Part shown: positions 8,349 to 29,387 of the stretch, one piece after another
Position numbering within the stretch: position 1 is the first letter of the stretch
Layout of the letters: each line of letters begins with the position of its first letter
IMG/VR virus record: IMGVR_UViG_3300032032_000001
Span: 32,001-96,000 of that record
Source of the DNA: a virus
Length of the DNA stretch: 64,000 bases
Direction: 5' to 3' (one strand)
Position numbers and translations under genes: made by a program
Notes under the pieces: model-generated
What the model saw: the letters and a program-made list of their open reading frames with translations, nothing else
The model's database searches: none
Told to the model about the DNA's origin: nothing

Positions 8349-8402
8349 AATATCCTCCTTCAGGATTTGGTTGTGGATAGCGATAGAAGAGTATTCTTCC
8401 AT

Positions 8403-8418
8403 CACTATTCTTATGCCT
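8403..8418 (-). promoter_or_regulatory. Putative phage promoter WGGYATAAG-N4-RTG, copy 1
   Basis: Minus strand AGGCATAAG-AATA-GTG. Hairpin GATGGAAGA-ATAC-TCTTCTATC (8382-8403) starts at the predicted +1 G. Confidence 0.75.
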
Positions 8419-8446
8419 AAAAAAGGGGGCACTTTTGCACCCCCTT
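8419..8446 (-). terminator. Intrinsic terminator
   Basis: Minus strand GGGGGTGC-AAAA-GTGCCCCC hairpin followed by T6, just after the phosphoesterase stop. Confidence 0.8.
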
Positions 8447-8452
8447 AGTCCC

Positions 8453-9205
8453 CTAGCAGATGTGGATAGGGTCACAGTAAACGGAATCCGCCTTCACCGC
8501 GTGAAACCCAACGTTGTCGCCGTCCTTCAGGATTGCTGCGCAAAGGTGCCCACCATGAACACAGCCCAAGTCCAATCCCGTTGCGTGCTTAAACTCGACG
8601 GGGGAGTTGTGGGATGTGAACGGTTGGTGTCCGAAGTAGACATGTCCAAAACGACCATCGTAGATATCTGCCCAAAAGTCATCCTGAGGAGTCTCTTCCC
8701 CAAAGACGACCATTGACCCAGAGTCATCCACAAACCGAATGAACATTGTCCGCTCGGCCCTCTTTCGCTGCTTATTTGACATCTCACCCAAGACGGCAGG
8801 GAGCGCCTCCATCCTCGGGGTGATACCCCCGTGGACAACCACGAAATCATCACGTTTCACATATGTGACTACCTTGCTCCGTAGCCAATCGCGTAAATCC
8901 TGGTCTGTTGACTCCATAACGCCGGACAGCTCAGTAGCGTATTTCATCTCCATCGCTTTTTCGACGCCACCGTTCTCTACCTTCTTCCAGAATCGAATGT
9001 TTCTCGACTCGTGATTTCCCTGGACTACCGTCGCCTTGTCGCCAAGGTTTCGGACGTACTTGAGAACTCCGGAGCTATCTGGGCCCTTATCAACCAAGTC
9101 CCCAACGAATATATACTCCGTCACCCCACGGTCGCTCAGGTCTCCAATAAGCACCTTTAGTTCTTTGAGACATCCGTGAACATCTCCAATAATTGCTGTA
9201 GCCAT
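8453..9205 (-). CDS. Calcineurin-like metallophosphoesterase (PPP/ApaH/PrpE-like)
   Basis: Motifs GDVHG, GDLVDKG, GNHE, VHGG, FGH, LDLGC. AAGGAGG RBS. Confidence 0.9.
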   Translation of the reverse strand: MATAIIGDVHGCLKELKVLIGDLSDRGVTEYIFVGDLVDKGPDSSGVLKYVRNLGDKATVVQGNHESRNIRFWKKVENGGVEKAMEMKYATELSGVMESTDQDLRDWLRSKVVTYVKRDDFVVVHGGITPRMEALPAVLGEMSNKQRKRAERTMFIRFVDDSGSMVVFGEETPQDDFWADIYDGRFGHVYFGHQPFTSHNSPVEFKHATGLDLGCVHGGHLCAAILKDGDNVGFHAVKADSVYCDPIHIC

Positions 9206-9251
9206 AAGGCTATCCTCCTTGTGGTTGTGTTTTGGTAAGGAACTTTCCTTA

Positions 9252-9267
9252 CATAGCTCTTATGCCA
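9252..9267 (-). promoter_or_regulatory. Putative phage promoter, copy 2
   Basis: Minus strand TGGCATAAG-AGCT-ATG. Perfect hairpin GTAAGGA-AAGT-TCCTTAC (9235-9252) starts at the predicted +1 G. Confidence 0.75.
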
Positions 9268-9293
9268 TTATTAGTGTGTGATATTGCGTAGAT

Positions 9294-9333
9294 AAAAAAA
9301 GGGAGAGAGCCTTCGTAAGAAGACCCTCTCCCT
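9294..9333 (-). terminator. Intrinsic terminator ending the long replication operon
   Basis: Minus strand GGGAGAGGGTCTTC-TTAC-GAAGGCTCTCTCCC followed by T7. Confidence 0.85.
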
Positions 9334-9360
9334 TAACCACAACCCCGAAGGAGGACGGGA

Positions 9361-10101
9361 TTACTTTACGTACTTACTTGGATCAGGGACCTTGGTAAGG
9401 TCTTTGATCATGGGCTCGTCCTCCTCAACAATAATACTGTTGATGATGTACACGAGTGTATTCGTAAGTAGGTTATTTGCCTGAGTCTGTTCTTGGCGGA
9501 TCGCCTGTAGTTGACTTTCAAGCTCAGAGAGCTTGCTCATCAAGGCGGTCGCGGCAGGATTTTTCTCAGTTGTTTTGATTTCCAGATCCGCAGGGGCGGC
9601 CTCTGCAACCTCATCAACCTCCTCAACCTTCTTAAATCCCGTAGTTGCTTTTCGCTTAGGGCTTTTGGTTGACTTCTTGATCGGTGCCACAGCTGGCTTA
9701 GCTACTGCCTCTGGCTTTTTACGGGGTCGCCCCCTCTTCTTCTTAGGCTCTTCCACCACAGCCTCGACAGGGGTCTTTACCTCTTCCGAGACCTCGTCGC
9801 TGGTGTCCTCATCGGTCCCCTCAGGGGGCCAGGACGGGGCGGTGCATTCGCCAAGAATAAATTTTTGTAGACGCTTGATGTAACTTCCAACACCCGTTCT
9901 AAAGGTGTCTTCAATTCCTACGCCGCTGATACTAAGCCCAGCAAACTCTTCTGCTCGCTCATGAATCCATGAGACTACTTCAGCCTCTTTCATGGTGTAA
10001 GCATCGAGAGGCTCTAAGCCCATTCCTACGATTGCAATTTTTCTCAATTCGGCACGGTCTAAAGGACCGAGCATTTTCTTTGTAAAGCGTTTAGTCGCCA
10101 T
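9361..10101 (-). CDS. AT-hook DNA-binding protein with C-terminal coiled coil
   Basis: Likely start MATKRF at 10101. KKKRGRPRKK AT-hook, acidic/basic low-complexity linker, heptad segment LMSKLSELESQLQAIRQEQ. Confidence 0.65.
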   Translation of the reverse strand: MATKRFTKKMLGPLDRAELRKIAIVGMGLEPLDAYTMKEAEVVSWIHERAEEFAGLSISGVGIEDTFRTGVGSYIKRLQKFILGECTAPSWPPEGTDEDTSDEVSEEVKTPVEAVVEEPKKKRGRPRKKPEAVAKPAVAPIKKSTKSPKRKATTGFKKVEEVDEVAEAAPADLEIKTTEKNPAATALMSKLSELESQLQAIRQEQTQANNLLTNTLVYIINSIIVEEDEPMIKDLTKVPDPSKYVK

Positions 10102-10381
10102 AGGTAGTTTCCTCCATAAGTTTGTTGTGACAGTACACAACGACACCGTCATGATGATTGTAACAGTTACCATCGCACGGCAGTGATAGCCTGTTCCGGT
10201 TCTCCTTAATGTACTTTGTTAGTTTATCTCTTATTGGGTTAATTGGGCTATTTGTGACTTCATCTGTCTTATACTGAAGAAAGTCGTGTAATTGCTGGGT
10301 AGGCGTTGATGGGCAAGCCCGGACTCCCATCTGCTCCCAAACAATATGCAGCAACTCACTCTTACTCGCACCCGGGTTCAT
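10091..10381 (-). CDS. Hypothetical protein with Cys/His cluster
   Basis: Overlaps both neighbours in the operon. Contains PCDGNCYNHH...YCH. Confidence 0.65.
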   Translation of the reverse strand: MNPGASKSELLHIVWEQMGVRACPSTPTQQLHDFLQYKTDEVTNSPINPIRDKLTKYIKENRNRLSLPCDGNCYNHHDGVVVYCHNKLMEETTYGD

Positions 10382-10803
10382 GATAACTCCTGTATACTAA
10401 ACCTGATACCAACAAAGTCGCTATCAGGGCCGTGGTGCTTTTTTACGAACTCCTCTATAAAGCAGGAGTCATCAATAGCTAAGCACTCAGCAATAACGTC
10501 CTCTAGTACCTTGACCAAGTTAGATACGTCGCGTCGCTTATATCTAGTCTTGGCCTTCTTTGGCCACCCCTTGTTATATAACGAGGGTAGGAAATAGTGG
10601 ATATTTAATCGGTACGGGTGATCCGGATTCAGTGGGCGCTTTTTGAAGCCCACCTGCTTCGCAATTTGAACAGAGGCCTTAGCTTTGAACTGCTTCATTT
10701 TAGATGACGGCCTTGGGCCACGAGTCGTGTAAACGTACATGTCATTCACCGAGGGAGGGAGTATGTCAATCTCCGCCTCAAAAACAATTGGTTCAGTCTT
10801 CAC
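10378..10803 (-). CDS. rusA: RusA-like Holliday junction resolvase
   Basis: LPPSVNDMY and RRDVSNLVKVLEDVI...IDDS (DxxNxxKxxxD...DD). Probable GTG start at 10803. Confidence 0.85.
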   Translation of the reverse strand: MKTEPIVFEAEIDILPPSVNDMYVYTTRGPRPSSKMKQFKAKASVQIAKQVGFKKRPLNPDHPYRLNIHYFLPSLYNKGWPKKAKTRYKRRDVSNLVKVLEDVIAECLAIDDSCFIEEFVKKHHGPDSDFVGIRFSIQELS

Positions 10804-11359
10804 GCCGCACCCGCTTAAAATTACCCGGAAAGGATTTAGATTTTGATGGCTGCGGCCTTGAGAAAACCTCTTGCCTGTCGCCATCCTCCTGGGTTCGGAA
10901 CCACAACTCCCGACCCAGCCGATCCATACTCTTACTTATTTTACGGAGCCTAGCCTCATGCACGTCTACCTGGGCTTTAAAATAAACGTAGTCTCTTTTG
11001 GCACCTAGGCATGATTTTGTGATGAACGCCTTCCGCAGCTCTGAGTTTGTAAGCTTGCTGTCCCTCGCCGTGGCCAAGGTGGCCTCCGCCGCGACAATTT
11101 CTAACCTAGCTTTGCTTATGGTCGCATAACTACTAGCCTTAGCCAGTTGGTCTGATATGTATTCGAAAAACGACAAATAGGAATCATACAGACCCTTGAT
11201 GTCCTCGTTTGGGAGGTACTTCAGGCCTTGTGGGATCCTAGGCTCCTCACCGGGTGGTTCCCGGTCAGGGGAAAATCCGGTAGCCCGTAAGTCGTTCTCT
11301 AACGTAGTTCTTAGCGCCAGGAAGACATCCTCCTCCTGGTCTGGTTTTTTATCCATCAA
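10793..11359 (-). CDS. Helical hypothetical protein, possibly UvsY-like recombination mediator
   Basis: Coiled-coil-like, ends ...DRLGRELWFRT, lies in the recombination cluster. Function inferred from context only. Confidence 0.45.
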   Translation of the reverse strand: MMDKKPDQEEDVFLALRTTLENDLRATGFSPDREPPGEEPRIPQGLKYLPNEDIKGLYDSYLSFFEYISDQLAKASSYATISKARLEIVAAEATLATARDSKLTNSELRKAFITKSCLGAKRDYVYFKAQVDVHEARLRKISKSMDRLGRELWFRTQEDGDRQEVFSRPQPSKSKSFPGNFKRVRRED

Positions 11360-11365
11360 TCCCCC

Positions 11366-12073
11366 TTAGAATTCGGGCTGACACGTGTGTGCGAACTTGC
11401 ATGTACGGCACACCCATTTATTAGGTTCTCTGGGTGGTTCTGTCCCGGCGGTTACATGCGCCTCGACACCCTTTATGACTTCAAGAACCTCCTCCCAGAT
11501 TCGGTTCTCAAACTTAACCTTGAACAGCCGCATAGAGCCAGTTGCACGATTCACATATAAGAGCTGACACCTGGGGATGTTCAGTGCAAACATGTATGCG
11601 TGTATCTGGTAAATATGCTCAGCTTTAGGTTTTGTAAGATTTCTGTAGACGCTTTCGCCGACCGTCTTGATCTCCAAGACCCACTCTTTGTCATAGAAAA
11701 CACCGTCACAGTGCCCAGCTATATGAAGGTCTTCGGAACTGATCGGGACTTCTGACTTGAAGTCTTCGAACTCTTTTTCTAGCTTAGCCTGGATCATGTC
11801 GTGAAGAGCATGTCCCATATCAAAAAGCATCCGAAGATCAGCAGGGATACGGCTCTCAGGCTCCTCCCCAATCCTGTCGTACCAAACAGCACGCTTACAC
11901 GCGCCAGGGTTTAGTGACGACGGGTGGTACACATGGGTTTTTCGGCTCCATGAGTCCTTGTTCATGTCCTCATGGATACGGTCAACCTCATTCATTATAT
12001 TGAAGTCTCTGTCCCACTCCGGCGCTTCCTCTCGAAGACACTTTTCTGGGACCCTAAACTTTTTCTTTGTCAT
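11366..12073 (-). CDS. Cas4/RecB-like PD-(D/E)xK exonuclease
   Basis: HPSS..ACKRAVWY, GHALH, GHCDG, LEIKT, QIHAY and C-terminal CRTC...C (1+3 Cys Fe-S staple). Confidence 0.85.
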   Translation of the reverse strand: MTKKKFRVPEKCLREEAPEWDRDFNIMNEVDRIHEDMNKDSWSRKTHVYHPSSLNPGACKRAVWYDRIGEEPESRIPADLRMLFDMGHALHDMIQAKLEKEFEDFKSEVPISSEDLHIAGHCDGVFYDKEWVLEIKTVGESVYRNLTKPKAEHIYQIHAYMFALNIPRCQLLYVNRATGSMRLFKVKFENRIWEEVLEVIKGVEAHVTAGTEPPREPNKWVCRTCKFAHTCQPEF

Positions 12074-12837
12074 TCTGGTATTCCTTTTGCGAACTCAAGG
12101 AATTTACCGTAACTCATGATGGTGTACTCATTGGTTCCTATTGTAAGCGTGATACGCTGCCCAGTGAGAAGCGCACTTACGTGGTTAAGTGTTATGGTGA
12201 AACTCTTCTTCGGCGGCCTGCCACCAAGACAGGACAGCCCCTCAAATGAGTCCAAAAAGTTATCATCAAGCTCCTGGTGTGGGACGACGGCAACTTCGCC
12301 CCCTTTGTTAAGCTCGATTATGTAGGCTGGTATCTTTCCTTGTGAGTACGCTTGCTTCCTCAGAAACTCTAAGTCTTTCACGCTCACACTCATCTTATTG
12401 CTCTTAGTTGTCTTGGCCTCGACGAGGATACTTGGGGTTATTACATCCCTTCGGTAGCCCCATCTGGATCCGGAGGCGGGCTGTCGCTTACCATCCAGGT
12501 CTTCAGCTATTCTTACTTCTTGTTTTTTGCTGGCCTCATGGTTCGTCAACACGGCTATAGCCTCCTCTATTACTACGTAATATTTATCATTCTCGTAAAT
12601 GTCCTCAGCGCTTTTAGTCCAGTCGATTCTTCCTAGGATCATCCTAGCAAGCTCTAAGAACTTCTCGGGCACATACACCAGCACCGCTAAGCCACTCTCA
12701 ACATGCGTTATGTTGTAGTCCGTATCGAGCCGTGCCGACCCAGGACGCTTATGCATAAAGAGTCCAGGAAGGAACGGTAACGCGTCGATAACGACTAACT
12801 TGCCTTGCGGGCCGGTGCATATACTCAATCTAGCCAT
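12070..12837 (-). CDS. PD-(D/E)xK nuclease, Hjc-like resolvase domain with N-terminal extension
   Basis: KQEVRIAEDLDGKRQPASGS...RDV...LVEAKTT. Confidence 0.7.
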   Translation of the reverse strand: MARLSICTGPQGKLVVIDALPFLPGLFMHKRPGSARLDTDYNITHVESGLAVLVYVPEKFLELARMILGRIDWTKSAEDIYENDKYYVVIEEAIAVLTNHEASKKQEVRIAEDLDGKRQPASGSRWGYRRDVITPSILVEAKTTKSNKMSVSVKDLEFLRKQAYSQGKIPAYIIELNKGGEVAVVPHQELDDNFLDSFEGLSCLGGRPPKKSFTITLNHVSALLTGQRITLTIGTNEYTIMSYGKFLEFAKGIPE

Positions 12838-13882
12838 CGGAAACCCTCTTCAAAACTTCTGCCCTAACTTCAGCAACCAGCTTCGGGGACTTCTTCAGTA
12901 CATCAACGACGCCCTCTAGTCCGCCTTCTATCTTGTCCTCGTAATCCAGGATGTAATAGAAGCGACCCTTGTTAAAGACTACGTTATACGCCTTGGCGCT
13001 ATTAGCAAGATCTGCGACCATATCGACCCCCTCATTAAACATGAAGGTGTACTCGCCCTCAGACCCCTCGCTTATCCCATGCTTGCCTTTGGAGATTTTC
13101 CATTTAATGTCTTTACCTACCTTCTCCTTGCCCTTCTTTATAAAGGCCCCGGGGCGTAGGTGGATATCGACAGCTTTGGCGTGCTTGAGGGCGTAGCCCC
13201 CAGGCTGGGTATACGGATTATACTTCGCTGAGTGTGCGTTCATGTTGGCCCGTACAGGGTTAATCATTACAACGCAGGTACCGTTTGGTGTACCGTCCTC
13301 GCCAGGAACACGCATGGCGCTATAGAATTTGCGACAGAAGTTACTAAGCAGTGACGCCCAAGTCGCTATTTTAGCGTCCTCACCTAGCCCTTTGACCACG
13401 TTGTCCCGAGTCTCCCCGGACCCTAACTCGTTGATAACCAGAAGCTGAAATTTCTGAGACTTTACAATCTCAAGCATAACGTCCAGCATAACCTCTGCGG
13501 GCTTATCTGAATCTTCAGAAGCTAGGTCTACGAATAGGAAATTTCCGGTGCCTGATAGATCAACACCCGCAAGCTCCATGAAAGAAGGGTCAGGTTTGTA
13601 GCCAAATGACATCCAGGCGACATTGGACTCAGCGCCATACTTCTTTTGTACCTCTGCGATAAGTCTGTTGGAAAGGTAGTCTTTACCAACGCCGTCAGGA
13701 CCAAATAACTGGATCATTGACCCAGCAGGAAGCCCACCCTTCAGAGCGATATCAAGTGACAATATCCCCGTTGGGAGTCTCGTATCGAACGGGGTAGCTA
13801 CCTCAGACATTGGCTGTATTACAGCGGCTCCGCCCATTCTTTTTTGTACACTCTTAATAAGTTGGCTTATGTCGTTAGCCAT
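12830..13882 (-). CDS. recA: RecA/UvsX-like recombinase with atypical ATPase motifs
   Basis: PTGILSLDIALKGGLPAG, GPDGVGKD (Walker A), PGGYALKH, KISKGK. Confidence 0.85.
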   Translation of the reverse strand: MANDISQLIKSVQKRMGGAAVIQPMSEVATPFDTRLPTGILSLDIALKGGLPAGSMIQLFGPDGVGKDYLSNRLIAEVQKKYGAESNVAWMSFGYKPDPSFMELAGVDLSGTGNFLFVDLASEDSDKPAEVMLDVMLEIVKSQKFQLLVINELGSGETRDNVVKGLGEDAKIATWASLLSNFCRKFYSAMRVPGEDGTPNGTCVVMINPVRANMNAHSAKYNPYTQPGGYALKHAKAVDIHLRPGAFIKKGKEKVGKDIKWKISKGKHGISEGSEGEYTFMFNEGVDMVADLANSAKAYNVVFNKGRFYYILDYEDKIEGGLEGVVDVLKKSPKLVAEVRAEVLKRVSDG

Positions 13883-14127
13883 TATTCCTCCTCAAGCTCC
13901 TTCTTGATCTTCTTGAATTCATCAGCAAGCTCAGGGCTTACCTCCTCAAGATTCTCGTCGTAGAGCTTAGTCATGTCGTTAAATAGTTTCATTTTGAAAT
14001 CTTTGATCATGCTCGGAGCCTCGCCAGACGCGACCTTTTCCATCGCCTCATCCTCGGACTCACAGAGCTTCATTTTGATTAGGGTAGCAACCACTTGAGT
14101 TGAGTCCCCGTACTTTTCCATAGCCAT
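13882..14127 (-). CDS. Small acidic hypothetical protein
   Basis: 81 aa, 1-nt overlaps with both neighbours, AAGGAG RBS. Confidence 0.7.
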   Translation of the reverse strand: MAMEKYGDSTQVVATLIKMKLCESEDEAMEKVASGEAPSMIKDFKMKLFNDMTKLYDENLEEVSPELADEFKKIKKELEEE

Positions 14128-14621
14128 TACTTATCTCCTTCTGGGTCTAGTCTGATCAGTGAATCGCGCTCTTTACCCATGATTGTTTTAGCATGGTCCG
14201 CTCCGATCACCCCGAGGTTCACGGTGAGGTACGCACCATTAGTTAGTTCGATTATTGCGTTGTCGTCACCTGTGCACAGGAATAGGTTTCCGATAGTGTC
14301 CCCCTCCTCCAAGCAGGTATTTACCGCCCCCGCGATTTCTCGCAAGGCTTCCCTTCGGGCGTCGAAAATATTACTGAGTTCTGTTGCCACGATTCTCTCC
14401 TTCTGGTCTCTTGTTTTTGCTTTTATCAACCACTCCTCCTTGGAAGCCGTTGATCTTGTTGAAAAGCCTCTTGAGTAAATTAACCTAACAGGTCGCCTAC
14501 TCTTTGTATATCTTGCTCCACGTTCGGAGTGGTTATGCTCCCAGACGCGCCTACCCACATCGGTTGTTATGCCGGTGTAGATAGACCCGCCTGAGCACAT
14601 TACGGTGTAGACTGCCCACAC
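14127..14621 (-). CDS. GIY-YIG nuclease (UPF0213/SLX1-like)
   Basis: VY...IYTGITTDVGRRVWEHN...GARYTKSRRPVRLIY...ASKEEWLIK. Confidence 0.9.
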   Translation of the reverse strand: MWAVYTVMCSGGSIYTGITTDVGRRVWEHNHSERGARYTKSRRPVRLIYSRGFSTRSTASKEEWLIKAKTRDQKERIVATELSNIFDARREALREIAGAVNTCLEEGDTIGNLFLCTGDDNAIIELTNGAYLTVNLGVIGADHAKTIMGKERDSLIRLDPEGDK

Positions 14622-14690
14622 TTATCTATAATCCCTAAGGTAGATAAGTATGGACATTCCGGCCACCATTCCAAAAATGAATGACATCAT
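14622..14690 (-). CDS. 22-aa hydrophobic micro-protein
   Basis: MMSFIFGMVAGMSILIYLRDYR. GGAG RBS, fills the gap between neighbours. Below the ORF-track cut-off. Confidence 0.6.
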   Translation of the reverse strand: MMSFIFGMVAGMSILIYLRDYR

Positions 14691-14693
14691 CAA

Positions 14694-15029
14694 TTACTCC
14701 GGTAGAAGTGATAGCTGTTTAGGTTCTGGTGGGATAAGCTCCCATACCGTAGCCCCTCTACCACTTCTTGTAGGCCTTCTGCTACCACTATCCCTAATAT
14801 GGCCAGACAGGACCAGCTCTCTTCGACGAGCACTGGCTGTCTGATGTCTTAGGTCTAGGGCAACTTCAACCTCATCGTCAGTAGCTCCCTGAAGCCCCGC
14901 CTCCTTGATGAAGGTGAGGACCTTAAAGCGCAGTGTGGACGAAGATGGCTTAATTGACTCTGCCGCAGCTTCACTTGTATCTGAACCACTAACGAATGGT
15001 GGATTCCCTCCATAGCTTTCATGGCTCAT
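14694..15029 (-). CDS. Winged-helix DNA-binding protein
   Basis: DTSEAAA...GATDDEVEVALDLRHQTASARRRELV...DSGSRRPTRSGRGATVW, a common phage wHTH pattern. Confidence 0.8.
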   Translation of the reverse strand: MSHESYGGNPPFVSGSDTSEAAAESIKPSSSTLRFKVLTFIKEAGLQGATDDEVEVALDLRHQTASARRRELVLSGHIRDSGSRRPTRSGRGATVWELIPPEPKQLSLLPE

Positions 15030-15220
15030 AAGCCCTCCTCATCCAGTCTGGCCCCTGTAGTGATTTCGTAATGGAGGATCTCCCCAGTAGACAGGCACTC
15101 TACAGAAGCAACTGTTTCTTCAGTCTTGATTCGCTCAACGGTCTCCCGAAGGGCGTGCCAAGGGGATTCAGCAGTAAGCTCATCTTCAATTATTACTCTG
15201 TAATGTCGCTCATCACTCAT
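15026..15220 (-). CDS. Hypothetical protein
   Basis: 64 aa, overlapping start/stop with neighbours. Confidence 0.6.
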   Translation of the reverse strand: MSDERHYRVIIEDELTAESPWHALRETVERIKTEETVASVECLSTGEILHYEITTGARLDEEGL

Positions 15221-15458
15221 CTACCCACTCCGTAGCTTCTTTGAGGGTCATAGGCTGTATAAACAGCGGAGTGCTATCACCAACCCAAGCGCCAAGCGTA
15301 TTGTATTCAAAGAAATCCTCGGCCTCTTCTCTTGTGCCGCCGTCACGCATAAGTATCTCTATGCATTTTTCACGGTCGTATGCAGCGACAGGTACAGAAA
15401 AACCATACCTATGCGCCACACCCACGAAGGCCTCCTCTAATCCGTTAGCCAGCATCAT
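15213..15458 (-). CDS. Conserved hypothetical phage protein
   Basis: ANGLEEAFVG...AYDREKCIEIL...EEAEDFFEYNTLGAWVGDSTPLFI, a pattern common in aquatic phages. ATG at 15458 with AAGGAGG RBS. Confidence 0.75.
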   Translation of the reverse strand: MMLANGLEEAFVGVAHRYGFSVPVAAYDREKCIEILMRDGGTREEAEDFFEYNTLGAWVGDSTPLFIQPMTLKEATEWVDE

Positions 15459-15672
15459 GAGCAGCCTCCTTCGTAACACTCCCACACAGAAAGCATCTGA
15501 TTTCGACGCTTAGTGCTGAGTCGTTAACGTACGAAACGCCTTCACAGAATGCTTGCGCCTCGGCCTTTGATACGGGCCCGAAAATTGAGCCACCACTATT
15601 TACTTCCTCGTAGTCGGAATCGTCTAGATCCCCTACAACAACAACATGGTATAGGTGCGGTATATCCGTCAT
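15445..15672 (-). CDS. Hypothetical protein
   Basis: 75 aa, start overlaps the polymerase stop. Confidence 0.6.
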   Translation of the reverse strand: MTDIPHLYHVVVVGDLDDSDYEEVNSGGSIFGPVSKAEAQAFCEGVSYVNDSALSVEIRCFLCGSVTKEAAHDAG

Positions 15673-21206: not shown

Positions 21207-21215
21207 GTTCCCTCC

Positions 21216-21521
21216 TTAGATCTCCTGATTTATTAGGCCTTTGATTTTTTCATTTACTTTCTCTTCACTGAGTTCTTCCGTCTCTGCCACGCGGGTAAGA
21301 AAGGTGGACTCAATTGCCTCTATGAGGCGATTAGCCGCCTCTTGAACTTCATCGGACTCGTCTACATCGTTTACGTCAGCACTCCCACAAGGCCAATCAC
21401 CGACCCGAAAACCAATCTTGGCTGATACTCGTGGTCGGTGTGAGGGCCCGTGGAAATGCTTGGAAACTTGAACTTCGTAACATAGAAGCGAGTCGATTTT
21501 CACGTTGTCTATTTTTTTCAT
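21216..21521 (-). CDS. Hypothetical protein
   Basis: Coupled ORF in the operon. Confidence 0.65.
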   Translation of the reverse strand: MKKIDNVKIDSLLCYEVQVSKHFHGPSHRPRVSAKIGFRVGDWPCGSADVNDVDESDEVQEAANRLIEAIESTFLTRVAETEELSEEKVNEKIKGLINQEI

Positions 21522-21934: not shown

Positions 21935-22365
21935 TACCCGACCTTGATCTTGATCTCCGCTGGGCCAACGACTCGCGGAGTCCCGAAGACCTTTTTCCGA
22001 AAATCATTAATTTGCTCAGCGGTAAACTGACCAGAGATAAGGCCCTGCTCTATAGCCTTGGAGTTGATTTTACCAATCACGCCAGGGGTCGTAAGAACCT
22101 CCATAGGGAGCGCGTGGGCAGTATAGTCGTAAGACTCTGGAGCCTTGTGGCGAGTGAATGATCCTACGGCCATTCCCTCATTACCCTCTACACCCTTGAG
22201 CGCTGTCTTAGCCTCTCCGTGCAGATGGTTGTACCGCTCGGCCAACTCGAAGAAAATGTCGAATACCTGCTGGTGGTCACCGATATACTCGGTGATCGCT
22301 TCGCGGGCTTCTTCAAAACGATTACAAGCCTCTGTGGCTTTCTTTCTTGATCCTTTGTAACTCAT
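21934..22365 (-). CDS. Hypothetical protein
   Basis: Coupled ORF, GGAGG RBS. Confidence 0.7.
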   Translation of the reverse strand: MSYKGSRKKATEACNRFEEAREAITEYIGDHQQVFDIFFELAERYNHLHGEAKTALKGVEGNEGMAVGSFTRHKAPESYDYTAHALPMEVLTTPGVIGKINSKAIEQGLISGQFTAEQINDFRKKVFGTPRVVGPAEIKIKVG

Positions 22366-23033
22366 TATCTGTCCTCCTTTAGAACATTGAATTTTGATGC
22401 AACATCGAGGGCGTCCTTGATGTTTCCAATTGTCTTATTCCACATACCCCCGACATTTTGTGAGGGGTCGCGGTACAGTTGATTGACCGAGGGGAGCACC
22501 ATCATCGGTACCGCATACTCAACCAGATTTCCCTGTATATATGCCTCAGTAACTCTCCCACGGGCCTCGACCACAGATGTAGGACGAAGCGTTACCCCCT
22601 TCATAGCGGCGCTGCCGAATGCGAGGATAATGTGTGGTTCTATAATGTTGATCTCTGCGTGGAGCCTGCTGCGGCAAGCTGCCAACTCCCCAGGCTTCGG
22701 CGCGGAGAGCATGTCTATCCGCCCACGGGGTCGTGGGGCCAAGCTTGAGCTTGGGCAGGACACTACCGGCGTTACCCATACATATGATGGGTCAATCCCG
22801 GCCTTCTTAAGAACGGACGCGAGGAATTTCCCTTCGCCCCCATCCAGCGGATTGCCGGTAACGGCTGCTCGCGGACTTACTCGGTCAACGACAGCAACTA
22901 TCTTGGTGTGTAGTTTCCCCTGCCCCCGTATCAATACCTTACGGTGTTTGTGTAGCGGGCAGAGGGTACAATCTCTATGGTCGAACAGAAGCTCGTCAAT
23001 CTTCTCTTCCAATACTCTTGTGTCTGAATCCAT
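22365..23033 (-). CDS. Family 4 uracil-DNA-glycosylase-fold protein, catalytic motifs degenerate
   Basis: CTLCPLHKHR, GQG, VWVTPVVSCP, ACRSRLHAEINIIEPHIILAFGSAA, ARGR are present. GEAPG and HPS motifs are replaced. Confidence 0.8.
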   Translation of the reverse strand: MDSDTRVLEEKIDELLFDHRDCTLCPLHKHRKVLIRGQGKLHTKIVAVVDRVSPRAAVTGNPLDGGEGKFLASVLKKAGIDPSYVWVTPVVSCPSSSLAPRPRGRIDMLSAPKPGELAACRSRLHAEINIIEPHIILAFGSAAMKGVTLRPTSVVEARGRVTEAYIQGNLVEYAVPMMVLPSVNQLYRDPSQNVGGMWNKTIGNIKDALDVASKFNVLKEDR

Positions 23034-24420
23034 TCGCTACAATCTTCCGTCGTAAGTTTCTACACATGGCCCCTGCTGGGCCAAACTTGTAGTCATCAAT
23101 GACAACCACAATTGGTTCTTTTTTTCCTGGTGATTTTCTCTCAATCCTACCCTTACCTTGTTGAAATGCGCCCCACGCCTTGAAGGGTGTAGCGAAAACA
23201 AGAGTATCTAGGGCAGCAACATCAAGACCCTCCCGAGCCACCCCGAAGGTGGCGAAGGTCACATCGCTATCACGGATTACCTGTGTCCGCATGTCACCGG
23301 AGGTGTCCCCGGTTACGGCACCGGCTGTATACCTATTCATACACTCCGTGTCGAGCAACTTCTGTAAAAGTACTTTGGGATGGTCTTTACTGTGAGTCAG
23401 GACAAGGATCTTCCTCCCCTTCCCTAGCGCATCTTGCACAACGGCTAAGATTTCCCTGTTACGGGAGCCAAGCTCTGAGAAGTACGTGTACATTTTCCCG
23501 GCGGAAAACTCGCCCGTAATGTCTTTGATCCTTGAGTCATCCTTAGGCACCGTGGTCTTAACTTTCTTGAAGTAGATCTGCGCCTCAAGATCACCAACCA
23601 AGTCACTGTAGAATATCGGCCCAATATGCGCGTAATATACGTCCTCTAACCCATCCTCACGGTTAGGCGTGGCGGTCAGCCCGTATCTATTACCGTAAAA
23701 TAATGGAGCGGTCTGGCTGAATGTAGCGGCAGACAGGTGGTGGACTTCATCGAAGATGACCGTCCCAAACCTCGACCGTACGTCATGTGGGATCGTGTGT
23801 GCCCGCTTTGCGAGCGTATGGATCATTGCTAGAACAAGCGGCTTATCCCACTCCTCCTTAGACCCCTGCACGATACCAATATCATCCTCCCCTATCCCCA
23901 GAAACTCCAATGCCCGGTCTTTCCACTGATCCATTAGCCCTGAGTTATTAACAATTACTACGGCGGGGTAGCCTCTTTTAGCGATTTTCTTTAGGGCCAT
24001 TACGGTTTTCCCCTTGCCGCAGGCTAGGTTCAAAACGCCGAATTGCTGGTCCTTAAAGGCATCCCAGGCCTTTTGCTGGTCCGCGTCTCTTGGTTTAATT
24101 TTGTCCCCAAAATCAAACTTCTCTAGAGAATCTTCGAGGCGCAGTTCGCCCCACTTTCCAATTTTTTCTTTCCACTCCTCTTCCGTAAAAAAGTGCCTAG
24201 CTATTACAACGTAATCTCCCAGGTCACGTGCAAGCGAGAAAGTGTTAGTTTCCCCAGTCCTTTCGTTGACGGAGATGACTTTCGACGCGTTTATTAGCGC
24301 TTTTTTATTAGGGATCTCTTCCGAAGGGACCCACATCCAAGCAGACCGGTGCGCCCCGGAAAGAGCTTCACCAGAGTCTGTTTCGGGAAGATATAGTGGC
24401 TTTTTCTTTTTAGTAGCCAA
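22996..24420 (-). CDS. SF2 DNA helicase (XPB/UvsW-like)
   Basis: LACGKGKT, DEVHH, GLTATPNREDG, REGLDV, QGKGRIER. TTG start with GAGG RBS. Confidence 0.93.
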   Translation of the reverse strand: MATKKKKPLYLPETDSGEALSGAHRSAWMWVPSEEIPNKKALINASKVISVNERTGETNTFSLARDLGDYVVIARHFFTEEEWKEKIGKWGELRLEDSLEKFDFGDKIKPRDADQQKAWDAFKDQQFGVLNLACGKGKTVMALKKIAKRGYPAVVIVNNSGLMDQWKDRALEFLGIGEDDIGIVQGSKEEWDKPLVLAMIHTLAKRAHTIPHDVRSRFGTVIFDEVHHLSAATFSQTAPLFYGNRYGLTATPNREDGLEDVYYAHIGPIFYSDLVGDLEAQIYFKKVKTTVPKDDSRIKDITGEFSAGKMYTYFSELGSRNREILAVVQDALGKGRKILVLTHSKDHPKVLLQKLLDTECMNRYTAGAVTGDTSGDMRTQVIRDSDVTFATFGVAREGLDVAALDTLVFATPFKAWGAFQQGKGRIERKSPGKKEPIVVVIDDYKFGPAGAMCRNLRRKIVANGFRHKSIGRED

Positions 24421-24421
24421 G

Positions 24422-24868
24422 TTAGTCCTCCAAAATTTTTGTTATTCTCTGTTTAATAAAATACTCCAGACTTTCAGTCCTGGAGCCCTCTAGATGCTCG
24501 AAAAACAAGTTAATTAGCTGGTCTACCTTGTTCTCGTCTATCTGTTCAGTTGTGATGAATTTTTTAAGCTCTGAGTTGGCGGCGGGGCCACAAGCTCTTT
24601 TTTTGGCTAGCACTTTTTCTGTCCTAGCCTTGCATACAGCAGCTATGAGTTTCTTTGCGTCCTCATCCACTTCAGGGTTTACGCCGAGAGCGGCGAACAT
24701 TTTCATTAGACTTTGGTTGGAGGGGGCCGACACGCCCGCCTCATATTGGCGGACGGTCTCCCTGCTGAGTCCGCATTCGATTGCAAACTTTCTACAGGAA
24801 TAGCCCCTTTCCAGCCTCAGTCCTTGGAGTAGCCCTCCAAAGTGACTCGTCAACTCTCCCACGATCAC
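24422..24868 (-). CDS. XRE-family HTH regulator
   Basis: FGGLLQGLRLERGYSCRKFAIECGLSRETVRQYEAGVSAPS. Confidence 0.85.
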   Translation of the reverse strand: MIVGELTSHFGGLLQGLRLERGYSCRKFAIECGLSRETVRQYEAGVSAPSNQSLMKMFAALGVNPEVDEDAKKLIAAVCKARTEKVLAKKRACGPAANSELKKFITTEQIDENKVDQLINLFFEHLEGSRTESLEYFIKQRITKILED

Positions 24869-25176
24869 TCCTCATCAGATTCGAAATCCTTGCCACAAAC
24901 AGTACTGTCTTGACAGCTATCTTTGTATACGACAGGATCTTCTTTGTCACAAGCTTGATCTTGGTCAAGAAGGTATTGTTCTGAATCTTCTGGATTTGCG
25001 ATCTGGTTAGACGTGTTATTATTTCCTTGTGATCGGAGTTGGTGAGAAATGGTTGACAGCATATCGGCAAAGCCGTCTATAGCTATCTCAAGGAAGTCTT
25101 TTCCTTGCGGGTCTCGTAACTCCTTTGGTACTTCTACTTTAATGGTATATCTATTATCATCAATTGACATGTTCAC
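24865..25176 (-). CDS. Acidic hypothetical protein, first gene of the replication operon
   Basis: GTG start with GGAGG RBS, directly downstream of promoter copy 3. Confidence 0.65.
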   Translation of the reverse strand: MNMSIDDNRYTIKVEVPKELRDPQGKDFLEIAIDGFADMLSTISHQLRSQGNNNTSNQIANPEDSEQYLLDQDQACDKEDPVVYKDSCQDSTVCGKDFESDEE

Positions 25177-25211
25177 TGGCCTCCGGGTTTAGTGTAATTG
25201 TGTGTGGTTAG

Positions 25212-25227
25212 CATGGTGCTTATACCA
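25212..25227 (-). promoter_or_regulatory. Putative phage promoter, copy 3
   Basis: Minus strand TGGTATAAG-CACC-ATG at the strand-switch point, followed by an A/C-rich leader. Confidence 0.75.
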
Positions 25228-25257
25228 AAAAGCAACTAGCCCTTGTGGAGATACGGC

Positions 25258-26289
25258 ATGACAGAATTTTCAGGTACTTACGACCATTACGACGATAACG
25301 GGCTCCTGCTCCGAAAGGAGATGGGCAGCAAAGGGATCCCTCCGGTGATTAAAACCGCAACGGATCTCTCTAACCCGGCAACACGGCATGACGGAGATTA
25401 TGCTGTTGTGGCCGATACAAACCATGGGGTCGTGTACAAGTACCCGGTCTCGGACGCGGGCAACGCGGTAGCTTCGGCGGTTTATTTCTCAGAGTACGGG
25501 CACAAGCTCCCTCAGGGAATCAAGAAGACCGCAGCAAAAGCTATCAACGATGCCCTGGTTGACTTCGGCTTCACACCGCCGGAGGACTTAACCAAGACAG
25601 CCTCAATGGAGCTTGGCTACAGCGGGGAAGGTGACAACATCTCCCTTGAGAAGCTTTTCGGCATTGGTGGTGAAGATGATCCCATGGAGCTTGTTGAGGA
25701 CGCCTTCTCTAAGTTAAGCCCCCGAGGCAAGAGCCGGTTGGCTATGCAGGTTAAGGAGGCAGGCCTCATGGAGGCTGCCCCAGAAGAGCTGTTGGACTAC
25801 TTGTCCAGCGATGAGCCCGGGGTCGGAGCCAACTTTGATGTAGCGGTGGACACACGAAAGCTGGTCCTTCTTGATCCGGCAGCAGCCGGTGAGCTTGATG
25901 AGCTACAGAAGACCTCCCAGTCAAAATTCCTCGATCCAGAGGCTGTCGCGGAGGAGTTATCCCTTTTTGATCAGAAGCACCAGATCACCCACCTGTATGA
26001 TCGTGTAATAATTGATCCATGGAAGGCTGTTCATGGGGATCTATCGAAAACCGCATCGCACGGCATGACAATTGACGCTGACCAGCTTACTGATGTTGCC
26101 GAAGTTGCCGGTAAAGAGTATACATCTGACGCAATTAGCACCTGGGTGAACGATTCAGGGCTTGAGAAACTCACTGATGCATTCGGTGAGGACTTTGCCG
26201 GGGAGTTCAAAGAGGACCCCGCAAACGTGTTCAAAAGCCTACCGGTCACCCATAGGAATGCTATAGCGCGGATGATTGATGAAAGCTGA
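25258..26289 (+). CDS. Putative head-module protein with K-x-A motifs
   Basis: GGAG RBS. IKTAT, KKTAA, TKTAS, VKEAG, SKTAS. Two genes upstream of portal. Confidence 0.65.
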   Translation: MTEFSGTYDHYDDNGLLLRKEMGSKGIPPVIKTATDLSNPATRHDGDYAVVADTNHGVVYKYPVSDAGNAVASAVYFSEYGHKLPQGIKKTAAKAINDALVDFGFTPPEDLTKTASMELGYSGEGDNISLEKLFGIGGEDDPMELVEDAFSKLSPRGKSRLAMQVKEAGLMEAAPEELLDYLSSDEPGVGANFDVAVDTRKLVLLDPAAAGELDELQKTSQSKFLDPEAVAEELSLFDQKHQITHLYDRVIIDPWKAVHGDLSKTASHGMTIDADQLTDVAEVAGKEYTSDAISTWVNDSGLEKLTDAFGEDFAGEFKEDPANVFKSLPVTHRNAIARMIDES

Positions 26290-26956
26290 GAAGACTAAAC
26301 AAGTTGGGAAGCCTGCTGATGAGGTAATACGCACAGCCTTTACAAATAAGGATGTGCACCCGCTTGTTTTGAATCTGATCATGGTGAAAGAGTTTGGTCC
26401 CGACTACCTCGCCTGGGAGCCTGAGACCTGCTGGATTGAGATTGCACGAACGTGGAACTCCACCATATCAGAGGTGAACAGGAACAAGATCCAAGCCGTT
26501 CGAATGTGTCACACAACCGATCAGCCATACGAGCGCTGGGAGGCCTTTGACATTGTTGCGTCCGGATTGGTCGGGGTCCCACCGAAGTTTGATCTTATAC
26601 AGAAGCCCACTCCCCATAGAGCAGCATTCGCCCTTGAGGTGCTTGCGCAGATTAAAGAAGAGGCCAAGGTTTCTAGCGAAGTCTATAAGTATGTCTCCGC
26701 CTGTATGCTTGACTACGGCATGGTGTATGGATCCGGCCCGCTGGAGCCGTGTAACAGTATAATGGCCAGCGTTCTGGATGGGCATGGCATATCTCAACAA
26801 GAGTCCGTCAAAAAAGCGTTGCGTAAGAACCGCAAACCAACCTTTGATGGTAATAATGATAGTGATGTGCAGCTAATGAAAACACTTTCCGTAAAGGACT
26901 TCCTTGAAGGAACATCCAGGATGCTGCTAATCCAATTAAAGAAGCATCTTCCGTAG
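26279..26956 (+). CDS. Hypothetical protein upstream of portal
   Basis: Long ORF overlapping the previous stop. Confidence 0.7.
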   Translation: MKAEKTKQVGKPADEVIRTAFTNKDVHPLVLNLIMVKEFGPDYLAWEPETCWIEIARTWNSTISEVNRNKIQAVRMCHTTDQPYERWEAFDIVASGLVGVPPKFDLIQKPTPHRAAFALEVLAQIKEEAKVSSEVYKYVSACMLDYGMVYGSGPLEPCNSIMASVLDGHGISQQESVKKALRKNRKPTFDGNNDSDVQLMKTLSVKDFLEGTSRMLLIQLKKHLP

Positions 26957-26967
26957 GGAGTTAAAGT

Positions 26968-28998
26968 ATGGCGTATTCAAACAATAGAACGGGTCGATAT
27001 TCTTTAGGCGCGAGATCCAGAGCAAAGACTATTGGGAAGCCAGAGTCGTTTTATCCTAGCCCCTTTTTCGATGTCGCCCAGAACTACCTGCCCAAGACAA
27101 TTAAAGAAACTTTCGATTGGTGCCTCTACTACCAGCTAACCAACCCGTTGATCAGCGCGGTGACAAGCAAGCTCGCTACATACCCGATCACAGACCTCAT
27201 CTACGAAGATGATAACGAAGGTCTTGTTGAGATGTATCGGAGCATGTTCGAGGGACAGTTCCTTTTAAGGCAGTTTCTGATTGAAACAAACCTGGATAGG
27301 TACACGTATGGAAACGCTTTTGTGTCCGTATCTTTCCCGTTCAAGAAGGTTCTAAAATGCCGCAACTGTGGTGACGCTAACCCTGCCCGTGAAGTTAAGT
27401 ACAAATGGAAGAGCTTCGCGTTCCATATGACCTGTGAAAAATGTATGCACGTAGGCCTCGCCGATGTGAAGGATGAGCCAATAAAGTCGGCCCAGCAGAT
27501 ACGGCTGATTAGATGGAATCCAAAAAGCATCACGGTTAAGTACAATGAGGTAACAGGGCAGAGCCAGTATTACTACAACATGCCGAGGCACATGAGAAAC
27601 GACATCATGCTTGGCAAACCGGCAATGATCGAAACGATCCCACAGGTGTTTATTGAGTCGCTCAAAAAGAAGCGGTCTATTCTCCTGGAAAGCTCTAAGC
27701 TTTTTCACTGCCGACGCGCCTCTGTCTCTAGAGACCCTTCGGATAGCGGCTGGGGAGCCCCTCTGATTCTCCCGGTCCTGAAGGACATCTTTTTCTTACA
27801 GATCTTGCGGAAAGCGCAGGAAGCTGTCGCAATGGAACACGTTGTTCCTATGCGAGTAATGTTCCCACAAGTCACAACGGACGGGAACAATCCGTACGCC
27901 CACGTTAATCTACAGGATTGGCAGGACGAGGTCTCAGGCCAGATCAAAAAGTGGAGGATGGACAACAACCACATCCCCGTCATGCCTGTGCCGATTGGGT
28001 ACCAAATGATCGGCGGGCAGGGAAAATCCCTCCTCCTTCACCAAGAGCTGCGAGTCTATAACGACCAGATTATCGCAGGCATGGGCGTCCCCACAGGGTT
28101 TTTCTACGGAGAGCAGCAATACTCTGGGGCATCCGTTAACCTACGCGCCCTTGAGAACGAGTTCTTGGGAAACCGGCAGGACATGCTCAGGCTTGTAGAA
28201 TTTGTCAGGGATCGCGTTTGCGCATTCTTGGATCTGCCCAGGATGACTCTCAAGTTTAAGCCCTTCAAGATGGCTGATGACATTCAGAGAGCCTCTTTTG
28301 ATATGAACCTCGCTAATGCGGGCATGATCAGCCGAAGAAGCTTCTTGGAGTCGAGGGACTTCAACTTCGACACGGAGCAAGAGCTTATCCACGAAGAGGG
28401 TAAGAAGCTAAATAGATCACAACGTGAGGGCATGATCGCCAACGCTGAATCTCAGGGCGAAGCAATGCTTATCCAGACTAGATACCAGATCCAGTCTCAA
28501 GAATTACAGATGGAGGCCCAGCAGCAACAGCAAGCCTCTGGAATGGCCCCTCCTCCCGGCCAACCCCAACAGGGTCAGCCGCAAGAGGGTCAACCACAAC
28601 AAGGACCGCCTCAGGAGGGGGCTCCCCCGGAAGCAGCGCAGCAACCGGGACCAGAAGGTGCTGCGCCTCCGCCCGATCAACAGGGCGGCGGCCAGCCATC
28701 TCCAGAACAGGGCGCACCTCTCCCAGAAGAGGCTACCGCAGGGGCGGATCAGAGCCCTATGGGGGCAGCAAATACCGGCCAAATGGTAGACATGTTCGCC
28801 CAAGCTAAGCGTGTCTCCTCACAGATAAAAAAGATGAATGAAGTAGATAGATACCGAGCTATGGCGCAATTACGCGCCAGTAGCCCGGATCTATATATGC
28901 TTGTTAACAACGCTCTTTCCGGCGCTGGAATAAAGACTATGCAGCCTTTACCCGAGAAGCTTCCATCTAGAGCGAACCCTGATAGGGCGCAGATCTAA
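26968..28998 (+). CDS. Portal protein with Zn-ribbon insertion and Gln/Pro-rich tail
   Basis: NPLISAVTSKLATYPI, YGNAFV, WGAPLILPVLK, IIAGMGVP...YSGASV portal-like motifs. CRNC...CEKC insertion. Confidence 0.8.
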   Translation: MAYSNNRTGRYSLGARSRAKTIGKPESFYPSPFFDVAQNYLPKTIKETFDWCLYYQLTNPLISAVTSKLATYPITDLIYEDDNEGLVEMYRSMFEGQFLLRQFLIETNLDRYTYGNAFVSVSFPFKKVLKCRNCGDANPAREVKYKWKSFAFHMTCEKCMHVGLADVKDEPIKSAQQIRLIRWNPKSITVKYNEVTGQSQYYYNMPRHMRNDIMLGKPAMIETIPQVFIESLKKKRSILLESSKLFHCRRASVSRDPSDSGWGAPLILPVLKDIFFLQILRKAQEAVAMEHVVPMRVMFPQVTTDGNNPYAHVNLQDWQDEVSGQIKKWRMDNNHIPVMPVPIGYQMIGGQGKSLLLHQELRVYNDQIIAGMGVPTGFFYGEQQYSGASVNLRALENEFLGNRQDMLRLVEFVRDRVCAFLDLPRMTLKFKPFKMADDIQRASFDMNLANAGMISRRSFLESRDFNFDTEQELIHEEGKKLNRSQREGMIANAESQGEAMLIQTRYQIQSQELQMEAQQQQQASGMAPPPGQPQQGQPQEGQPQQGPPQEGAPPEAAQQPGPEGAAPPPDQQGGGQPSPEQGAPLPEEATAGADQSPMGAANTGQMVDMFAQAKRVSSQIKKMNEVDRYRAMAQLRASSPDLYMLVNNALSGAGIKTMQPLPEKLPSRANPDRAQI

Positions 28999-29229
28999 TC
29001 ATGTGTTTTGAATTGCTATTAACATTGCGGACTTCTTGTTACACCGGTCGCATCTACCACGTTGGTAGAATGCGGAAGGATGGTCCACTTGTTTAATGCA
29101 AACAGAACATACCCACGCAACACAACCAGTGTTTTCAAGAAAGTGGATACACTCGCCGCAGTTCTTTGGCTCGTTGCACCACATGCTGGCAACGTCGCAA
29201 GCAATGGGTTTTGGTGCGCGGGTACTCAT
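28999..29229 (-). CDS. Small Cys-rich (Zn-finger-like) protein
   Basis: 76 aa with CGEC, CSVC, CDRC plus three further Cys. Stop abuts the portal stop. Confidence 0.65.
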   Translation of the reverse strand: MSTRAPKPIACDVASMWCNEPKNCGECIHFLENTGCVAWVCSVCIKQVDHPSAFYQRGRCDRCNKKSAMLIAIQNT

Positions 29230-29241
29230 TTGCTACTCTCT

Positions 29242-29337
29242 TTAGCCGGAAGGTACCAGCGCTGCGTTAACGGCGTTCGCCACTTCCGCACAAGTATTAA
29301 CATACGTTGTAGCACTATTTTTTGCGGAACAACTCAT
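29242..29337 (-). CDS. 31-aa micro-protein
   Basis: MSCSAKNSATTYVNTCAEVANAVNAALVPSG. AGGAG RBS, first ORF after promoter copy 4. Not in the ORF track. Confidence 0.55.
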   Translation of the reverse strand: MSCSAKNSATTYVNTCAEVANAVNAALVPSG

Positions 29338-29371
29338 ATAAACTCTCCTGTTTGTTTAGGGCAGTATTACC

Positions 29372-29387
29372 CATAATTCTTATACCT
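29372..29387 (-). promoter_or_regulatory. Putative phage promoter, copy 4
   Basis: Minus strand AGGTATAAG-AATT-ATG. Hairpin GGGTA-ATAC-TGCCC (29359-29372) starts at the predicted +1 G. Confidence 0.75.

Follow-up and report, generated by a model that had tools for sequence, protein, structure and literature searches.

The window analysed here, a stretch of 64,000 nucleotides (nt), corresponds to positions 32001-96000 of a single virus contig of 148,364 bp (IMG/VR record IMGVR_UViG_3300032032_000001, called the genome below), which CheckV estimates to be 83 % complete. The element under study is a short motif, WGGYATAAG-N4-RTG, standing at the head of leftward transcription units. Exactly four matches to this pattern were found in the window, all on the minus strand, against a shuffle expectation of 0.04. 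They lie at 8403-8418, 9252-9267, 25212-25227 and 29372-29387, where the initial annotation had placed them, and its account of their surroundings also held: each copy is intergenic, is oriented towards the next leftward gene and has a start codon with a Shine-Dalgarno sequence downstream. Each of the four units headed in this way ends in a terminator. As judged from sequence, the four sites belong to a sigma-type promoter class with two blocks, of which the motif forms the core; this class extends through the whole genome and the lineage and is not a group of four local sites. The features concerned are listed below in window coordinates, with promoter bases numbered from the predicted transcription start (+1).

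8403..8438, minus strand: promoter P1, with GCAAA at -35 to -31, AGG-CATAAG and AATAG-T-G; predicted +1 at G 8403.
7959-8347, minus strand: P1 unit, one gene for a Lys-rich protein of 130 amino acids (aa).
8419..8446, minus strand: intrinsic terminator with a 10-bp stem and a T-run, closing the P2 unit.
8453-9205, minus strand: P2 unit, one gene for a metallophosphatase.
9252..9287, minus strand: promoter P2, with GCAAT, TGG-CATAAG and AGCTA-T-G; predicted +1 at 9252.
9299..9334, minus strand: intrinsic terminator with a 16-bp stem and a T-run, closing the P3 operon about 30 nt upstream of P2.
25170 down to 9361, minus strand: P3 unit, a replication and recombination operon of about 16 kb.
24422-24868, minus strand: gene for a helix-turn-helix regulator, second gene of the P3 operon.
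25212..25247, minus strand: promoter P3, with the weaker -35 block CACAA, TGG-TATAAG and CACCA-T-G; predicted +1 at 25212.
About 29337 to 28999, minus strand: P4 unit, two small open reading frames (ORFs).
29372..29407, minus strand: promoter P4, diverging from the polymerase gene, with GCTAA, AGG-TATAAG and AATTA-T-G; predicted +1 at 29372.

The leaders, measured from the final G of the motif to the start codon, are 56, 47, 42 and 35 nt long for P1 to P4, respectively. The P3 operon encodes, according to PHROGs, the helix-turn-helix regulator, helicases, a primase, a DNA polymerase, a UvsX-like recombinase, a Cas4-like nuclease and RusA. The first two sites directly follow the terminators at 8419-8446 and 9299-9334, as had been described, and the GCAAA block of P1 sits in the loop of the former. 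A consensus scan of the gaps holding P1-P4 revealed no other promoter candidates. The bare 8-mer GGYATAAG is not significant in the window (6 copies, 3.0 expected), as the initial annotation had also recognised. Since the longer pattern WGGYATAAG-N4-RTG had been fitted to the sites post hoc, tests of specificity reaching beyond it were needed, and pattern-independent ones were therefore run.

Motif discovery in the intergenic regions of the full genome, which the initial annotation had proposed as a check, returned GGTATAAG as the most intergenic-enriched 8-mer: 8 of its 12 copies fall in the 7-8 % of the sequence that is intergenic (P between 2e-7 and 7e-7). Listing of YATAAG-N6-G gave about 10 more intergenic, gene-oriented sites outside the window, and all listed sites of the promoter class aim at the downstream gene. 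The motif is not restricted to the four sites first described, as about 14 further candidates were found in the genome, together with an ambiguous fifth copy in the window:

10261..10295, minus strand: GCAAT-N16-AG-TATAAG-ACAGA-T-G, within a conserved ORF of 96 aa.

The TAT-AAG of this fifth copy codes for Tyr-Lys in the 96-aa ORF; it may be an internal promoter of the gene at 9361-10173 or a by-product of protein conservation.

The statement that no shared -35 element is visible turned out to be wrong, as GCAAA, GCAAT, CACAA and GCTAA stand in register at -35 to -31 of P1, P2, P3 and P4. The complete layout consists of GCAAa (-35 to -31), 16-17 nt, GG (-14/-13), TATAAG (-12 to -7), five nucleotides of which the last is followed by T(-1), and G(+1); alignment of the genome sites also showed that positions -19 to -16 are rich in T and that, of 15 sites, 14 or 15 have T-G at -1/+1. 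A conserved -35 block implies the two-block promoter layout of the sigma type. The strict two-block pattern was found 11 times in the genome against 0.38 in simulated sequence, and 4 times in the window against 0.17.

The search was extended to relatives carrying the same polymerase, another check suggested at the outset. With the polymerase protein as the query, 74 IMG/VR loci of 36-91 % identity were retrieved on contigs of up to 195 kb, and two relatives with complete genomes, G003 (173 kb) and G004 (180 kb), were compared in full. The two-block pattern occurred 12 times (0.45 expected) and 11 times (0.33 in simulations) in these two genomes, and GGTATAAG was again among the top intergenic 8-mers of G003. 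The 41 sites collected from this genome and the two complete relatives share two conserved blocks with a spacer varying by 1 nt only; G is kept at -14/-13, and T-G at -1/+1 is present nearly throughout.

The orthologous spot of P4, beside the polymerase gene, could be followed further. Most of the loci examined, including ones whose polymerase is only about 40 % identical, keep TATAAG-N4-(A/T)TG there, flanked by sequences that are unrelated among loci; close relatives retain both blocks. At least one of the loci examined (L021) lacks the box at this spot. Among 57 distant loci, whose GC content reaches 0.64, the last base of intergenic TATAAN is G 37 times, C 14, A 7 and T 6 times, and the upstream blocks are GCAAAA or TGAAAA.

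The boxes end in G at all four window sites, unlike the T of sigma-70 promoters, exactly as first reported. When the last base of the -10 box was left free, the intergenic two-block sites of the three genomes gave G to T ratios of 8:1, 7:1 and 7:2; taken together, 22 of 26 such sites (about 85 %) have G at -7, and copies in coding DNA show no preference for G at this position. The conserved -35 block is GCAAa, not the TTGACA of sigma-70, no sigma-70 consensus site was found at P1-P4 when the window was scanned, and matches to this consensus stayed at or below the shuffle mean in all three window scans. The earlier view that these are promoters of a phage-specific class and not of host sigma-70 is thus supported by the G at -7, the GCAAa block and the lack of a consensus site at P1-P4.

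The layout nevertheless has much in common with bacterial extended -10 promoters (TGn-TATAAT): two blocks about 17 nt apart, G at -14, a TATAA core spanning -12 to -8, a pyrimidine at -1 just before the purine predicted as the start, 7 nt beyond the box, and a sigma-70-family protein with regions 2, 3 and 4 that the lineage itself encodes. What sets the present sites apart is the G ending the box in about 85 % of them, GCAAa in place of TTGACA, the almost invariant T-G at -1/+1, which is unusual for sigma-70 promoters, and the proposed core enzyme, a phage single-chain beta-beta' fusion.

The final G of the motif, named as +1 in the initial annotation, is most likely the transcription start. 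Its distance from the -10 box, 7 nt, is the usual one for starts by holoenzymes of the sigma-70 family, and T(-1)-G(+1) agrees with the preference of multisubunit polymerases for a pyrimidine-purine start; Vibrio phage D181, discussed below, has G or A there. Further indication came from hairpins beginning exactly at this G, which were found at 22 of 50 sites in the three genomes, compared with 17.8 % of random 32-mers starting with G (P 1.6e-5), and the profile of hairpin-start offsets peaks at the G. Three of the window promoters have such a structure:

8382..8403, minus strand: P1 leader hairpin, 9 bp, starting at the predicted +1, -11.0 kcal/mol, z -5.5.
9235..9252, minus strand: P2 leader hairpin, 7 bp, starting at the predicted +1, -7.9 kcal/mol, z -4.0.
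29359..29372, minus strand: P4 leader hairpin, 5 bp, starting at the predicted +1, weak when taken alone (z -1.2).

No hairpin starts at the predicted +1 of P3. At the P4 position of relatives, stems of differing sequence were seen at the same place (by eye, uncounted). Because stem-loops at the extreme 5' end stabilise bacterial mRNAs, hairpins starting at the G fit a 5' end at that base.

The gene diverging from P4 encodes the polymerase that the initial annotation had proposed as the reader of the motif:

29420..35689, plus strand: single-chain beta-beta' multisubunit RNA polymerase of 2089 aa.

Five Pfam Rpb1/Rpb2 domains were matched above the cut-off in this protein, and PHROGs agree with the assignment. 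Bacterial rpoB and rpoC match the phage polymerase at 28-29 % identity; the nearest polymerases of cultured phages, at about 30 % identity, are those of Vibrio phages D181, D148 and D69 and Salmonella phage Arash. The gene lies within a rightward block that also contains a terminase, a head-maturation protease, a sheath-like gene and an SNF2-type helicase.

The candidate for the specificity subunit is a sigma-70-family factor, the gene of which escaped the initial annotation since it is located beyond the window, truncated by the end of the contig:

Genome 1-192 (L077:1-192), plus strand, 32 kb before the window start: sigma-70-family gene fragment, last 64 residues, region 4 helix-turn-helix.

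The region-4 match to TIGR02937 covers genome 31-189 (E 9e-5), and the reading frame continues past the 5' contig end. The 64 residues are 81 % identical to the C-termini of ORFs of about 300 aa in relatives. Such an ORF, matching the TIGR02937 model across regions 2 to 4, is present in all five close relatives, and these ORFs also exceed the Pfam Sigma70_r3 cut-off. The ORF at L079:1231-2127 is an example of a complete sigma gene in a close relative. A profile built from 15 sequences of this sigma matched solved chains of SigA, RpoD, RpoS, SigB and FliA, down to E 3e-14. The gene was detected in 16 of 18 distant relatives; of the 13 with a completeness of 90 % or more, 12 have it. Sigma and the fused beta-beta' polymerase occur together in 21 of 23 relatives. 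When 50,697 phage records were searched, the sigma matched only four, Arash gp10 and one ORF each in Vibrio phages D69, D181 and D148.

Neither Pfam Sigma70_r2, searched in the six frames of this genome, nor Arash gp10, searched with phmmer against all ORFs and in six frames, gave a match in this genome. Both results are understandable, because the contig keeps region 4 only and the tblastn match of the sigma to Arash gp10, as to D181, spans only residues 72-236, with region 4 showing no detectable similarity. TIGR02937 was the one model that picked up the fragment. Two further candidates were rejected: the weak Sigma70_r4 match at genome 56740-56820 is the helix-turn-helix regulator of the P3 operon and not a sigma, and an apparent second sigma in relative G002 is a ParB-like protein, matched spuriously through its helix-turn-helix. 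A homologue of this G002 protein, a ParB-like protein with the motif GYRRL, is encoded at genome 103009-103983 (minus strand), about 7 kb past the window end.

Among cultured phages, this sigma factor was found only in Arash (OQ632216.1) and Vibrio phages D69, D148 and D181, all of which belong to the closest polymerase matches. The promoter box was looked for in Arash and D181. GYATAAG-N6-G occurs in Arash 27 times on the reverse strand and 3 times on the forward strand (3 and 5 in the controls), and the top intergenic 8-mer is again GGTATAAG, with 20 of 31 copies intergenic (P 1.4e-13). The Arash consensus, tGGTATAAG-taaag-T-GTAA, stands ahead of leftward non-structural genes, with tCCAATAA and not GCAAa in the -35 region. 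The strict GYATAAG-N6-G is not enriched in D181 (10 copies, 17 in controls), because, as k-mer analysis showed, the D181 box is GTTATAAG and the start can be A. Of the 18 copies of GTTATAAG, 14 are intergenic. One strand carries 32 of the 40 intergenic copies of TATAAG; the start base is G or A and the -35 block is tCAATAA.

Arash and D181 thus resemble this genome in the -10/start box (GGTATAAG-N5-TG in Arash, GTTATAAG-taatat-R in D181), which heads non-structural genes on one strand. They differ from it in the -35 block, tCCAATAA or tCAATAA, and Arash also in having the beta and beta' parts of its polymerase annotated as two genes. The -10/start box is therefore unchanged in phages of Salmonella and Vibrio and in metagenomic relatives, at GC content of 0.45-0.64. 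The -10 box remains constant and the -35 block differs in Arash and D181, exactly where region 4 has no detectable similarity, which is what would be expected of a promoter read by a sigma factor, although this comparison covers only about three lineages.

The virion proteome of Arash lists beta, the most detected protein, as well as beta' and sigma gp10, and the Arash paper makes no mention of promoters (PMC10585845). No published description of a TATAAG phage promoter motif was found in the literature searched, later work on Arash included. From the position of the gene and by analogy with Arash gp10, the sigma protein of the present phage may also be packaged in the virion. One of the only three forward-strand boxes of Arash (11589-11602, plus strand, OQ632216.1) is placed just upstream of gp9-gp10, gp10 being sigma, which hints that transcription of the Arash sigma may depend on its own promoter class. 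Beside GTTATAAG, the D181 genome (OZ196140.1) contains other strongly intergenic-enriched words, TATATATA (22 of 26) and TGTTGCAA/TTGCAACA (10 of 11), which may be further regulatory motifs of D181.

The fit between the two proteins was explored by complex prediction with the sigma of relative G001 and polymerase residues 1030-1530, using alignments for both chains. The docking score was 0.74, the best control reaching 0.00; 58 of 80 solved complexes attain this mark, as do 2 of 110 mismatched pairs. The docking runs share at least 39 % of contacts, with a partner predicted local distance difference test (pLDDT) score of at least 62. The predicted interface joins polymerase 1217-1260, the clamp helices, to sigma 84-128 and 158-165, and the beta' clamp-helix segment is recognisable in an alignment of 14 polymerase sequences. 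Binding of sigma region 2 to the beta' clamp helices is the textbook sigma contact. The interface between sigma and clamp helices looks preserved in the model, a likeness that would be compatible with binding to the host core as well.

The structural block itself was searched for a counterpart of this promoter class. The TATAAG motif is absent from window 25243-64000 on the plus strand, and no promoter class was found there for the rightward genes. Three candidates were considered and rejected: the copies of TAATAAA mostly overlap stop codons or lie in ribosome-site contexts, TATAAATA gave no coherent alignment, and sigma-70 consensus matches occurred at chance level. A megablast search of the replication block against the 50,697 phage records, looking for a near-identical phage, gave no match.

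Some other genes of the genome deserve mention. An SNF2/helicase-type gene (window 42180-44000, plus strand; PHROG DNA helicase, E 1e-52) follows a few genes after the polymerase. In Arash, the DNA helicase gp217 is encoded beside beta' and is abundant in virions (PMC10585845), and by this analogy the helicase at 42180-44000 may be a transcription partner travelling with the polymerase. Giant ORFs on the plus strand at window 157-7893, genome 13319-19225 and genome 20180-26050 (2578, 1969 and 1957 aa, respectively) are possibly internal or ejected virion proteins; the 2578-aa ORF matched no PHROG or Pfam family.

The best explanation of the sites, their orientation and their conservation is that this promoter class drives the non-structural genes of the phage. 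It is reasonably probable that the motif is read by the phage sigma-70-family factor working on the single-chain polymerase of the phage itself and that transcription begins at the G. The assignment of the enzyme, graded as most likely, draws on co-occurrence, the virion proteome of a relative and structure prediction. Of the initial proposal, a promoter of the phage RNA polymerase with +1 at the final G, both parts are retained as most likely; what changes is the source of specificity, which is probably the phage sigma. The sequence of events would be as follows. The sigma of about 300 aa, with regions 2, 3 and 4, would read both blocks, region 2/3 recognising GG-TATAAG and region 4 the -35 block, and would dock on the clamp helices of the single-chain beta-beta' polymerase. 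Transcription would start at the conserved G, seven nucleotides past the -10 box, and many transcripts would then fold a stem-loop from their first base. By analogy with Arash, polymerase and sigma may enter the cell inside the virion, so that these promoters would be used first.

Several observations weigh against this explanation. The contig holds just the last 64 residues of sigma, and P3 has a weak -35 block. The labels intergenic and coding rest on crude gene calls and hence carry some error. The leader-hairpin signal is not significant in G003 alone (4 of 16), and the overall leader folding energy is the same as the background (P 0.08, 0.50 and 0.28). The docking pass may reflect likeness to solved holoenzymes, the family being one with many solved complexes. 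Finally, one orthologous site has TATAAT, not TATAAG, in all three genomes, which means that G at -7 is strongly preferred and not obligatory:

Genome 110936, minus strand, about 15 kb past the window end; G003 50838, plus strand; G004 51108, minus strand: promoter with a box ending in TATAAT, preceding a stretch without a clear ORF.

The perfect TATAAT of this conserved site is also what would be expected if the boxes were ordinary host extended -10 promoters read by the housekeeping sigma holoenzyme, an idea to which the spacing of the blocks by about 17 nt, the TGG or GG before a TATAA-type box and the purine start 7 nt downstream lend themselves as well. This is nevertheless held to be quite improbable: 22 of 26 sites have G at -7 in place of T, the most conserved base of sigma-70 promoters, the -35 block reads GCAAa, no sigma-70 consensus site exists at P1-P4, the same -10 box persists over the whole GC range and in both Salmonella and Vibrio phages, and the -35 block changes with the phage and not as the host would predict. 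More weight should be given to a reading in which the phage sigma recognises the promoters and recruits the host core, the phage polymerase using other signals, which also counts against the favoured explanation and is yet considered unlikely. Redirection of the host core is an established precedent for phage sigma factors (PMC7824862), bacterial SigA and RpoD chains are among the matches of the sigma profile, which reach E 3e-14, and the structural genes, for which no promoter class came to light, must be transcribed in a second mode. Set against this are the almost exclusive co-occurrence of sigma and polymerase (21 of 23 relatives, and the four sigma-bearing phages among 50,697 records being among the closest polymerase matches), the joint presence of beta, beta' and sigma in the Arash virion, and the conservation of the clamp-helix site in the phage enzyme, with a docking score of 0.74 against 0.00 that may itself reflect likeness to solved complexes.

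That the motif is no promoter at all and serves instead as an operator of the helix-turn-helix regulator, an RNA processing site or a replication or packaging site is very hard to credit. Hairpins do adjoin the motif, and the regulator gene at 24422-24868 is the second in the P3 operon. The copies are however strictly gene-oriented, 35-56 nt before start codons; two of them come right after terminators, where a new unit must begin; the two-block geometry with its fixed spacer is that of sigma-type promoters; and the gaps contain no other promoter candidate.

The explanation by a phage sigma on the phage polymerase should also be compared with known systems. SPO1 gp28, T4 gp55, which reads TATAAATA, and phiEco32 gp36 are phage sigma factors that redirect the host polymerase. 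As in the present lineage, a phage sigma-like protein provides there a phage-specific code for one gene class. Those phages are not known to have a polymerase of their own, whereas here sigma co-occurs with a phage multisubunit polymerase, the two being packaged together in Arash; the promoter sequences of SPO1, T4 and phiEco32 are unrelated to this motif, except for the TATAA core of T4 late promoters.

Jumbo phages offer the other comparison. Their described promoters include the phiKZ late T-A-T-G(+1), the AR9 late AACA-N6-TW and AT-rich early motifs near -10 (PMC7598289). The phiKZ and AR9 systems share with the present one a phage multisubunit polymerase with its own promoter code and a conserved box near -10, and a phiKZ-like T-A-T-G with G at +1 is seen in P2, P4 and two sites outside the window. 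Their enzymes consist of 4-5 polypeptides, have no sigma-family factor (AR9 gp226 and phiKZ gp68 stand in that place) and use no -35 block; the enzyme found here is one chain, about 28-29 % identical to bacterial beta/beta', and is accompanied by a true sigma-family protein. With TATG at some sites only, strong upstream blocks, a one-chain polymerase and a sigma gene, the sites do not belong to the phiKZ late type. According to a review of jumbo phages, those encoding a polymerase lack sigma and those encoding sigma lack a polymerase (PMC7824862); the present lineage, carrying both, is an exception to this rule.

The promoter is the first handle on what such a combined sigma and polymerase machinery reads. 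The signal provides exact predicted starts, bases to mutate (G at -7, GCAA and T-G at -1/+1) and a cultured proxy in Arash with Salmonella, and the motif allows non-structural units to be annotated from sequence alone in dozens of uncultured phages of 120-195 kb. If the phage sigma reads G at -7, it would be a natural variant of the best-studied base-flipping step in promoter melting.

A broader proposition is put forward tentatively and falls a little short of being probable: a mostly uncultured lineage, comprising more than 70 metagenomic members together with Arash and Vibrio phages D69, D148 and D181, may deliver in its virion a self-sufficient holoenzyme, a single-chain polymerase with its own sigma, that has a private promoter code in which the -10 TATAAG, with G in the place where all cellular sigma-70 promoters favour T, stayed fixed across hosts and the -35 block drifted with region 4. 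If this is true, the lineage would be a natural experiment on the reading of position -7 by sigma region 2, and its early genes would be independent of host transcription by a route unlike those of N4, phiKZ or crAss-like phages.

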